Below, in pieces: positions 3,516 through 4,612 of a DNA stretch of 11,552 bases. The notes beneath the pieces are model-generated. The model was not told the origin of the DNA, did not search any database, and worked only from the letters and a program-made list of their open reading frames with translations. Origin of the DNA: a virus. Location: UHGV virus genome UHGV-0140649; one strand, 5' to 3'. The position numbers and the translations under genes were made by a program. Each line of letters begins with the position of its first letter. The stretch's first letter is position 1.

Positions 3516-3538
3516 CAAAAAAACCACCTGAAGGTGGG
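3516..3538 (-). terminator. Intrinsic terminator immediately downstream of the 337-aa inserted gene
   Basis: Stem ccacc/ggtgg (3523-3527/3532-3536), loop tgaa; the minus-strand transcript is followed by seven U (3516-3522). Confidence 0.6.
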
Positions 3539-3544
3539 TTACTG

Positions 3545-4558
3545 TTACTTGTCTGAATCATCCAGTTCGTCTGTTTTCACATCCTCAAACCTTGGATGCA
3601 GGCGATTCATTTTTGCAATAAAATCTGAATAGTCGTTAGATAGCTTCATAATCGTAACGGTTGATGACAGATGCTCTCTTAATTTTTGATATCCAATATT
3701 TGGCGTCAGCCCCTGAAACAACTTTGTACCTTTTGAGGCCTTTACGTTCTGCTTTTTAAGCTCCTCAAGGATGTTTGGTGCCAATCTCTTGTAGACGATA
3801 TCATTTGTCAAAACGCCAAAATACTGAGGCCGGAAGCGGGGATTTTCCGGCGGGTATTCTAAGCCCCTTAACCTGAAAAGCTCTTCATAATAATCAGCAG
3901 GAAATGTTGTAATATAAGGTTGAATTTCCTTTGCGACAAAGGCCTCGAGTATTTTGGCGAGCGCATCTTTTTCTCTATCTCGCTGGTACCCCGTCGCTTC
4001 ATCAACAAGCGCTATTATTCCGACTTTAGCTAATGAGCGCACCAGAATTTCAGCTTTCTTGGCTGTCTCTAACTGGTTTGGCCTGGTGATAGCGCCTGCC
4101 TCTCTTGCCTTTAAATAAACATCGCAGACAAGAGGTATTATGGATGCGTCATAACCTTCCTGGACGGAGCCAGTAATCGTCTTGTATTTGACCTTATTGA
4201 TCACACCCATAACATCTTGATTTATATATTTTTTAAGGTTTGCAGCATCCATAAAAGCGGGCATATTGATCACCCCCTCTTCTTGAGGTGCTCTACCCCC
4301 TCTTTGTGGTCGGCCAAATGCTTTAAAAACAGAAGCTTGTGATATGATACGCCGTCCATTTTCGAGAACCGCGACATCTAATTCCGCATCACCGATCTTT
4401 AACTTTCCCTCATTCGCAGATACGGGCAATAAAGCTTTTTCTTTTTTTGCGGCAACAGCCTTTCTTGAGGATTCTTTTCTTTGCTCTGCTGTCATTTTTG
4501 CCGCGCGTGCCTTACCGCCTTTGGCCTTCCCACTAACATCATCATTTTTCATGAGCAT
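3545..4558 (-). CDS. Hypothetical protein, about 337 aa; AT-rich inserted gene (moron) in the nin region with a lysine/alanine-rich basic N-terminal tail
   Basis: Long ORF, visibly more AT-rich than its neighbours, flanked by its own promoter (4584-4612) and two terminators. N-terminus after the promoter is MLMKNDDVSGKAKGGKARAAKMTAEQRKESSRKAVAAKKEKA. Start is ambiguous between ATG 4558 and ATG 4552; the track's 4612 start lies upstream of the promoter and is rejected. No family recognised with confidence. Confidence 0.6.
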   Translation of the reverse strand: MLMKNDDVSGKAKGGKARAAKMTAEQRKESSRKAVAAKKEKALLPVSANEGKLKIGDAELDVAVLENGRRIISQASVFKAFGRPQRGGRAPQEEGVINMPAFMDAANLKKYINQDVMGVINKVKYKTITGSVQEGYDASIIPLVCDVYLKAREAGAITRPNQLETAKKAEILVRSLAKVGIIALVDEATGYQRDREKDALAKILEAFVAKEIQPYITTFPADYYEELFRLRGLEYPPENPRFRPQYFGVLTNDIVYKRLAPNILEELKKQNVKASKGTKLFQGLTPNIGYQKLREHLSSTVTIMKLSNDYSDFIAKMNRLHPRFEDVKTDELDDSDK

Positions 4559-4583
4559 ATCTCGTGTTGTGATTGATAAGTCA

Positions 4584-4612
4584 ATTATACACATGCACGT
4601 TGTAACGTGCAA
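4584..4612 (-). promoter_or_regulatory. Sigma-70-type promoter for the inserted gene, with a perfect palindromic operator in the spacer
   Basis: Minus strand reads TTGCAC (4612-4607), 17-nt spacer, TATAAT (4589-4584). The inverted repeat TGCACGTT-GT-AACGTGCA (4594-4611) fills the spacer, and a further ATGCACGT copy lies at 4622-4629. Confidence 0.5.

Follow-up and report, generated by a model that had tools for sequence, protein, structure and literature searches.

The P63C gene of a 933W-like Stx prophage lies in the nin region within a portable cassette with a conserved putative operator

We analysed an 11,552-nucleotide (nt) stretch of the virus genome UHGV-0140649, here called the window, which covers the immunity and early-right region of a 933W-like lambdoid prophage of the Shiga toxin (Stx) type, with the early-right operon on the minus strand. 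Within the nin region the window carries a gene for a protein of the P63C family. Operator, promoter, leader, gene and terminator form a portable unit, and judging from the comparisons presented below the segment 3517-4632 is very probably an autonomous promoter-operator-gene-terminator cassette, that is, a classical moron. The protein probably represses its own promoter; a role in defence or exclusion, suggested by analogy, is tentative. For the explanation as a whole, an autonomous and self-regulated cassette that encodes a DNA-binding accessory or exclusion protein, we estimate a probability of about 55%.

Organization of the cassette and its control region

The cassette contains the following features.
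4623-4629, minus strand: operator half-site A, ACGTGCA; it and half-site B are the arms of an inverted repeat, separated by 11 AT-rich nt
4605-4612, minus strand: TTGCACGT, in which the -35 hexamer TTGCAC (4612-4607) overlaps half-site B, TGCACGT (4611-4605)
4594-4600, minus strand: operator half-site C, ACGTGCA, within the promoter spacer
4584-4589, minus strand: -10 hexamer TATAAT, after a 17-nt spacer from TTGCAC; predicted transcription start near 4577
4560-4572, minus strand: leader TCACAACACGAGA, with a Shine-Dalgarno-like GAG at 4563-4561
3545-4552, minus strand: P63C-family coding sequence, 335 amino acids (aa) from the ATG at 4552 (MKNDD...)
3517-3537, minus strand: cassette terminator CCACCTTCAGGTGG followed by T7, beginning 7 nt past the stop codon; stem-loop 3537-3524

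The three half-sites (ACGTGCA, 11 nt, TGCACGT, 4 nt, ACGTGCA) form two overlapping inverted repeats over the -35 hexamer and the spacer, and half-sites C and B together make a perfect palindrome with 8-bp arms (TGCACGTT/AACGTGCA) separated by 2 nt. An earlier description of the window made from the letters alone, here called the sequence-only reading, had missed this three-half-site operator. The heptamer ACGTGCA occurs only in these three copies in the window, as it does in 50 kb of the 933W genome (L068, 1-50000), for which dinucleotide shuffles gave an expectation of about 6.9 copies. Since the heptamer is absent elsewhere, the operator appears to be local, as expected for self-regulation, rather than part of a phage-wide regulon. 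Its rarity could reflect avoidance of off-target operators or a general avoidance of the palindromes ACGT, TGCA and GTGCAC. Folding of the operator region as RNA gave no structure better than in shuffled sequences (z -0.43), and we therefore read the palindromes as DNA sites and not as an RNA element.

The -10 hexamer is replaced at the same place by TATGAT in near-identical copies from E. coli and by TATACT, GATAGT or GATATT in relatives. The leader is kept in the window and at seven other loci (L014, L016, L018, L025, L030, L057 and L067), and the start codons of homologues lie 8-9 nt past its GAG. Because of this spacing, the likely start codon is the ATG at 4552, which gives a protein of 335 aa, the length of the 90%-identical homologue P0002. 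The same open reading frame (ORF), ending at 3545, has two alternative starts. One is the ATG at 4558, two codons further upstream, which gives the 337 aa assumed in the sequence-only reading and may yet be the start. The other is the ATG at 4594 used in RefSeq and GenBank (349 aa; position 17532 in 933W, NC_000924). This codon lies between half-site C and the -10 hexamer, hence 5' of the predicted transcription start, and the RefSeq start is probably wrong, being placed within the predicted promoter, so that the annotation would need correction.

The control region travels with the gene

Four homologous loci (L008, L014, L016 and L018) were found via the protein, independently of any DNA motif. 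At 58-87% protein identity and in differing places, including Chromobacterium (L008, 58%) and Morganella (L014), they display the same block upstream of the gene: a half-site, 11-12 nt of AT-rich DNA, TTGCACGT, 4 nt, ACGTGCA, a -10-like hexamer and the leader TCACAACACGAG. Half-site A is kept 5' of the gene in all four. The column in which the -35 hexamer overlaps half-site B is invariant in our alignment A2, by construction for loci that came from the pattern scan, and its conservation at the four protein-found loci is independent evidence. DNA homology between the window and the L016 and L018 cassettes begins sharply at 4632, 3 nt before half-site A, and runs to 3545 in L016 and to 3582 in L018. 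A terminator follows directly after the stop codon in all cassettes examined, and in several of them another terminator abuts the first half-site.

For the reverse test, we scanned IMG/VR for exact copies of the core palindrome TTGCACGTNNNNACGTGCA and obtained 49 loci. A P63C gene lies just downstream, in promoter orientation, at 27 of the 49, and six of these genes are divergent (33-88% identity), although the loci are mutually related and the counts given here and below are not independent events. The other palindrome loci resemble chance matches inside coding DNA. One locus that we treated as a chance match (L043, 230-370, minus strand) has the palindrome TTGCACGTTTCAACGTGCA, after which come TGATATACT and an unrelated small ORF (MRKITAEVVGAF...) with a -10 in front; there is no P63C gene in the 310 nt available, a locus too short to judge, and the alternative is an operator before another gene.

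We also examined the 130 nt upstream of the gene at 43 further divergent loci. These contain clade-specific inverted repeats of the TGCAAGCA/TGCTTGCA, ATGCAAGTA/TACTTGCAT and TTAGCAT types, which have a core TGCA[A/C]G in common (1.65 per 130 nt upstream versus a background of 0.18). Of the 43 upstream regions, 18 contain a perfect inverted repeat whose arms are at least 8 bp long, as compared to 4.6% of the control windows; some of these repeats are upstream terminators. An operator that accompanies the gene and changes with its clade is the pattern to be expected if the encoded protein binds this site in cis. The travelling control block and the reverse test, together with the antisense positions described below, also argue strongly for the proposal of the sequence-only reading that this is a self-contained inserted gene that may be expressed independently of the early operon.

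Boundaries of the insert

The limits of the inserted DNA were determined by blastn against phages with another gene in the slot, and the features at its borders are as follows.
3495-4701: inserted or replaced segment, differing from phages with ninE-ORF22-ant in the slot, such as Lahn2
4678-4779, minus strand: truncated ninE of 33 codons, the start of which overlaps the stop codon of ninB (ATGA); homology to intact ninE ends at 4702
3424-3451, minus strand: second, stronger terminator with a 9-bp stem, a UUCG loop and T6; stem-loop 3451-3430

Around the slot, homology between the window and Lahn2 is confined to 2041-3494 and 4702-4787. The flanks without 3495-4701 are common to Lahn2 and more than 140 Stx phages, and the segment 3400-3494 is about 96% identical to many Stx phages that lack the P63C gene. 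The gene order is ninB, ninE remnant, insert, roi and ninG. The first 26 codons or so of the ninE remnant are identical in DNA sequence to ninE of Lahn2, after which the sequences diverge and a stop codon follows after 33 codons; the insertion has thus cost the 3' part of ninE. That the gene replaces ninC-ninF, as had been proposed, is therefore roughly right, except that this remnant persists. In Nil3, the remnant is annotated as a short 'ninE' plus 'ORF13'. The AT-richness ascribed to the insert is real but mild, with a GC content of 0.423 compared to 0.481 and 0.503 in the flanks.

Both of the terminators that had been described downstream of the gene were recovered by the terminator scanner, but only the first is specific to the insert. 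It is modest, with a 5-bp stem, a folding energy of -8.6 kcal/mol and a z-score of -1.45 (scanner and folding). The second folds at -15.5 kcal/mol (z -4.6) and belongs to the phage backbone 5' of roi, since homology to phages with another gene in the slot resumes at 3494. We rejected a hairpin at 4646-4662 as a candidate upstream terminator, since it is weak (z -1.1) and has no run of T.

The P63C protein and its family

The protein matches the Pfam family P63C (PF10546) over the whole model, at residues 203-293, with 84.1 bits (cut-off 26.1; E 1.1e-23), and PHROG 2384, a family of 'unknown function', over its full length (residues 5-336, E 1.8e-146). The globular region that the sequence-only reading could not place is thereby assigned to P63C, a domain of unknown function, and so not to a known nin-region protein of established function. 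The ORF has no Nin match in Pfam, unlike its neighbours NinB (3.9e-54) and NinG (2.6e-90). It corresponds to L0095 (ST933Wp35) of 933W and ORF350 of Nil3, and is already annotated as 'P63C domain-containing protein'. The segment 3400-4700 is 99.7-99.8% identical to 933W, Nil3, Lahn1, BP-4795 and other Stx phages. Of 5426 complete E. coli genomes, 49 contain this segment in full, with the full-length gene. Homologues make up more than 6700 clusters at 90% identity, nearly all of 320-350 aa, and span the Proteobacteria (among them Pseudomonas, Azotobacter, Achromobacter, Chromobacterium, Morganella, Providencia, Xenorhabdus and Gilliamella). The P63C match was found in all 40 homologues of the alignment.

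Three parts can be distinguished: a basic helical tail at about residues 8-42, an alpha/beta domain at about 45-155, and an all-helical domain with a core at about 157-200 that continues into P63C at 203-293. The lysine- and alanine-rich N-terminal tail described previously is conserved across the family as GKAKGGKARAxKMTPEERKE..KAAxAKK in alignment A1. It is followed by the variable alpha/beta region and then by an extremely conserved helical core, ..GIIALVDEATGYQRDREKDALAKILEAFVAKE.., leading into the P63C region; this most conserved segment contains the invariant acidic pair D186/E187 and other invariant polar residues. In the AlphaFold2 (AF2) model, the tail is likewise helical, the domain at about 45-155 is rich in beta structure, and the part from about residue 160 consists of helices throughout.

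A structure search with the model gave no strong match. The weak matches consistently involve alpha/beta domains that bind DNA, as well as proteins of the Bro, KilA and antirepressor kinds, and include Swi6-N, Dachshund and DdrC; there is also a match to p63 of Mx8 (E 1e-4). These results are suggestive of a Bro-N/KilA-N-like DNA binder in the N-terminal domain. At the level of profile hidden Markov models (HMMs), none of the 40 family members matched Bro-N, KilA-N, ANT (KilAC), P22_AR_N/C or Phage_pRha at E up to 1, and hhalign comparisons of the family with roi and with a Bro-N protein, as single sequences, found nothing. A weak match to PHROG 2899, 'anti-repressor Ant', covers the P63C region (E 0.005). 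Two other matches, to a Type I specificity subunit (PADLOC, E 0.0054, 14.7 bits) and to a PIN toxin (NCBIfam, E 0.006), were both rejected as sub-threshold and implausible.

The gene is an intragenic mosaic. In an alignment of 42 homologues (loci L004-L147), N-domain and C-terminal types occur in differing combinations: there are two or more N-domain types, with about 30% versus 60-80% identity to the window protein, and C-terminal types with 34%, about 55%, about 70% or about 90% identity in the P63C region, while residues 157-200 are always conserved (63-98% identity). Similarity of the basic tail to that of the window protein tracks the operator class, with an area under the curve (AUC) of 0.95 as compared to about 0.6 for all other regions. 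This correlation fits the idea of a nucleic-acid-binding tail, but it is not proof that the tail is the element that would read the DNA, because the tail codons adjoin the operator, so that the two are linked, and because the sequences are related.

Genomic contexts of homologous cassettes

We examined about 26 distinct contexts. In seven of these (L016, L018, L090, L093, L100, L128 and L130), the upstream neighbour on the same strand is a CI-type repressor with helix-turn-helix and Peptidase_S24 domains. The order in L016 is cI, terminator, cassette, small reverse ORF and N, which is the cI-bstA-N layout of BTP1, and in L018 it is cI, DUF3024 and cassette, where the counterpart in 933W is cI, DUF3024, RuvC-like gene and stk. 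The cI gene of L016 is 76% identical in DNA sequence to the C-terminal part of cI in the window, and a relative of the window phage therefore has the cassette behind cI and not in nin. The nin position in the window is the exception, and the slot behind cI, home of lysogen-expressed exclusion genes, is the modal position.

In lambda-like prophages of P. aeruginosa the cassette is antisense within the tail operon, with the moron neighbours Imm_superinfect, Arc plus P22_AR_N, SPOR and SDH protease. It follows Arc/Mnt/Ant in Morganella; in Azotobacter and Gilliamella it lies among tail genes and adjoins P22_AR_N, Bro-N, Rha or SocA genes, and in Chromobacterium it is placed between recombination and immunity genes. 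In a chromosomal, non-prophage island of Pseudomonas its neighbours are genes for pyocin S and PAAR. Where the gene is antisense in a tail operon, transcripts running on from that operon cannot express it, and since homologues are antisense in late operons or insulated by terminators we strongly infer transcription from a promoter of the cassette's own.

In some P. aeruginosa prophages (L148 and L150, 5300-7040), the cassette comes directly after an Arc-like gene, and this pair is divergent from a pair of ribbon-helix-helix and P22_AR_N (Ant-like) genes. The layout resembles immI, with P63C where P22 has ant, and the 100 nt upstream of the cassette are identical to copies without Arc.

A model for the cassette and its alternatives

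In the explanation that we favour, the gene would be transcribed from the predicted sigma-70 promoter, independently of PR and hence also in the repressed prophage, while N-modified read-through from PR, which by standard lambda biology has to pass over the gene in the window, would add expression in lytic growth. The protein would bind its own operator and occlude the promoter, holding itself at a low set level. Its N-terminus would be a basic helix, followed by an alpha/beta domain of the Bro-N/KilA-N-like type and by a highly conserved helical P63C module that serves as effector or in interactions. The contexts favour an accessory or defence-type role in the lysogen. Most speculatively, the protein may have a lysogen-expressed function against other DNA, likeliest the exclusion or abortive infection of superinfecting phages, by analogy of architecture and position with BstA, RexAB and Stk, which share the slot behind cI. 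A wider conjecture, which we regard as unlikely, is that P63C cassettes are very widespread, unrecognised single-gene prophage modules of defence by abortive infection or exclusion, in which a DNA-binding protein would be restrained by its own three-half-site operator, the operator DNA of the home phage would act as a signal of self-recognition or self-immunity as aba does for BstA, and the core at residues 157-200 (VDEATGYQ...R) would be the effector on a conserved target in replication or transcription.

Several observations weigh against the favoured explanation. The AF2 model is only moderately confident (predicted local distance difference test score, pLDDT, 76.8; predicted template modelling score, pTM, 0.58). 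No defence model in PADLOC-DB 2.0 matched the protein beyond the sub-threshold one mentioned above; the PADLOC model for BstA did not match it either, while a control BstA scored 1.9e-124, and hhalign gave a probability of 1.8% for a relationship of the P63C and BstA families. The literature that we searched holds no functional report on P63C proteins or L0095. The promoter is another such point: the hexamers TTGCAC-17-TATAAT that the sequence-only reading had singled out are present exactly (4612-4584), but to call them near-consensus was generous, since the -10 matches at 6/6 positions and the -35 at 3/6 only. A consensus scanner missed this promoter, and in several relatives the best -10 stands at a non-optimal spacing. 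What makes the predicted promoter credible is its conservation and not its match score.

These properties of the promoter have to be considered along with the possibility that the gene is like any other of the early genes and depends for its expression entirely on N-antiterminated transcripts from PR, with fortuitous hexamers and palindromes. It shares its strand with the early-right operon, the terminators normally present in the nin region of lambda are overridden by N, and the scanner found promoter-like sites in the region in no greater number than in shuffled sequences. Against this stand the conservation of hexamers, half-sites and leader across contexts and genera, the homologues that are antisense in tail operons or behind terminators, and the enrichment of the palindrome before P63C genes at 27 of 49 exact matches, and we rate this possibility as very improbable. 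If the operator is real, its binder may be a protein other than P63C, since what points to self-binding is only that the operator travels with the gene and varies along with it; this also counts against our explanation. A transcription factor of the host, or a different protein of the phage, would then wire the cassette to an external signal. That the half-sites contain the generic palindromes ACGT and TGCA as cores would agree with such a factor, and the overlap with the -35 hexamer would also suit a class II activator. However, the same operator occurs in Escherichia, Morganella and Chromobacterium on unrelated backbones, where the sole constant partner is the P63C protein; the operator sequence varies from one protein clade to another, the remainder of 933W lacks the heptamer, and tail similarity tracks operator class (AUC 0.95, confounded by physical linkage). 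We consider an external binder distinctly unlikely.

The main rival concerns the function of the protein, which could be a developmental regulator or antirepressor of the Ant/Roi/Bro type that acts on repressors or promoters of its own or co-resident prophages and tunes induction and Stx release, the operator keeping it off until needed. A role as regulator or antirepressor would agree just as well with how often Ant, Arc and Rha genes are neighbours, a further point against our explanation: Lahn2 has 'ant' in this slot, roi with pRha and KilAC domains comes next, and P22_AR_N, Arc, Mnt, Rha or KilA-N genes are neighbours in at least six contexts. The weak match to 'anti-repressor Ant' over the P63C region and the antirepressor, KilA and Bro proteins among the weak structural matches agree with this. 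Nevertheless, the cassette often stands alone, without Arc, Mnt or Ant, and also occurs in a chromosomal island without a prophage; in Pfam, the protein matches none of ANT, P22_AR, Bro-N, KilA-N and Rha, and shared moron hotspots need not imply a shared function. We rate a regulator or antirepressor role as unlikely, if still the strongest of the alternatives. A selfish mobile gene, with a site-specific nuclease or a mobility or addiction function of the homing-endonuclease kind as its product, would explain the sharp boundaries and the truncated ninE. The precise 5' boundary shared at 4632, insertions at many unrelated sites and the invariant D186/E187 and other polar residues in the most conserved segment would suit a mobile element, as would the frequent fusion of Bro-N/KilA-N-type binders to GIY-YIG/T5orf172 nuclease domains (PMC8096241). 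Yet no common target sequence was seen among the insertion sites, and the intragenic mosaicism suggests that the cassette spreads by the usual recombination among phages. This origin appears improbable.

Comparison with known systems

Morons in the sense of Hendrix and Juhala are exemplified by bor and lom of lambda and gene 15 of HK97. Like these, the P63C gene is an extra, portable gene of lower GC content, with a predicted promoter and a terminator of its own, between genes that are adjacent in related phages: it is absent from the same position in relatives with homologous flanks, and its base composition differs from theirs. The window cassette departs from known morons in its elaborate and conserved three-half-site operator, which would imply tight self-control, and in that the P63C family is unusually large and conserved, with about 55% identity between beta- and gamma-proteobacteria.

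Genes expressed in lysogens for exclusion and located behind cI include rexAB of lambda and stk of 933W. Homologous P63C cassettes occupy the same immunity-region slot (L018 versus 933W), but the proteins are unrelated, the window copy is in nin, and the rex slot of the window holds another ORF of 341 aa.

Modular 'phage regulator' proteins of the Bro-N/KilA-N/Ant/Rha/Roi type were reportedly surveyed by Iyer, Koonin and Aravind in 2002, and P63C was apparently defined in the same survey of domain shuffling. The P63C proteins share with these an N-terminal DNA-binding module (predicted here) and a variable C-terminal domain, and genes of this type are frequent neighbours of the P63C gene, with Bro, KilA and antirepressor proteins among its weak structural matches; the P63C proteins differ in lacking an HMM match, and the P63C subfamily has a fixed full-length architecture with an additional conserved basic tail. 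Binders of the Bro-N/KilA-N type fused to diverse effectors serve in conflicts between mobile elements (PMC8585504; PMC8096241), which makes a defence reading plausible.

BstA of phage BTP1 is a prophage-encoded abortive-infection protein with the DNA element aba for self-immunity (Owen et al. 2021, PMC8585504), and bstA is reported to be expressed at a high level in lysogens (PMC8585504). Like bstA, the window cassette is a unit of one gene, for a protein of about 300-340 aa, that ends in a terminator, and homologues of the window gene are found in the exact bstA slot (cI, cassette, small reverse ORF, N). In both proteins, a probable DNA-binding alpha/beta N-domain is combined with a distinct C-terminal domain, as far as the models indicate, and both loci have a short DNA element at the 5' end, the role of which is a prediction for P63C. 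In place of aba, the window has a set of palindromes that overlaps the promoter, and its gene lies in the nin region rather than directly behind the repressor, as seven homologous cassettes do. The BstA-like C-terminal domain of Pfam (PF26567) has no match in the window protein, and the best alignment to BstA covers 25 residues, a beta-hairpin and helix where BstA's KilA-N-like domain begins, at a non-significant E of 0.028. Together with the PADLOC and hhalign results, the absence of a PF26567 match rules out membership in the BstA family.

Significance

The gene is already annotated and its domain family is named but uncharacterised, and we therefore do not regard the cassette as a new kind of system but as a moron that encodes a (predicted) DNA-binding accessory protein. 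We know of no earlier description of the conserved three-half-site operator, of the limits within which the cassette is portable, of its tendency to lie in the slot behind cI, or of the mosaicism inside the gene, and together these make the function directly testable. The gene has remained unstudied although it is present in the reference Stx2 phage 933W and in other prophages of Shiga toxin-producing E. coli, and although its family counts thousands of members across the Proteobacteria. The conserved operator of its own and the frequent slot behind cI in the immunity region make it a candidate for a new lysogen-expressed exclusion or regulatory function. With its predicted promoter and its terminator placed between PR and Q, the cassette could also influence the N-dependence of Q and hence toxin expression.

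Phage backbone and neighbouring genes

The other genes of the window are listed below.
11169 onwards, plus strand: N
9633-10658, plus strand: 341-aa ORF directly 3' of cI, PHROG 6191 'unknown function'
8848-9552, plus strand: cI, with a Peptidase_S24 domain
cro and cII, minus strand: placed in this order in the early-right operon
7064-7885, minus strand: O-like initiator
5691-7067, minus strand: DnaB-like helicase
DUF7301, minus strand: between the DnaB-like helicase and NinB
4776-5297, minus strand: NinB (Pfam 3.9e-54)
2671-3399, minus strand: Roi, with pRha and KilAC domains; PHROG 'anti-repressor Ant'
2066-2671, minus strand: NinG (Pfam 2.6e-90)
1504-2022, minus strand: Q

The 341-aa ORF at 9633-10658 fills the rexAB/bstA/stk slot and has a low GC content of about 0.36-0.41. 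It gave no match in Pfam or PADLOC, PHROG 6191 being its sole match, and is a candidate for a second lysogen-expressed accessory gene of the window. On the 5' side of the cassette (4776-7885, minus strand), the window has the O-like initiator and the DnaB-like helicase where 933W has O and P, and it lacks the DNA methyltransferase gene found between ninB and ninE in 933W, Nil3 and Lahn2. No tRNA genes were found 3' of Q in window positions 1-1500, where 933W has ileZ-argN-argO before stx. The same 1500 nt contain no long ORF and reach a GC content of 0.54-0.59 within 1-1200, and the segment 783-1218 matches the first 430 nt or so of one or two of three comparison loci, searched as a pool by blast, at 85-92% identity.

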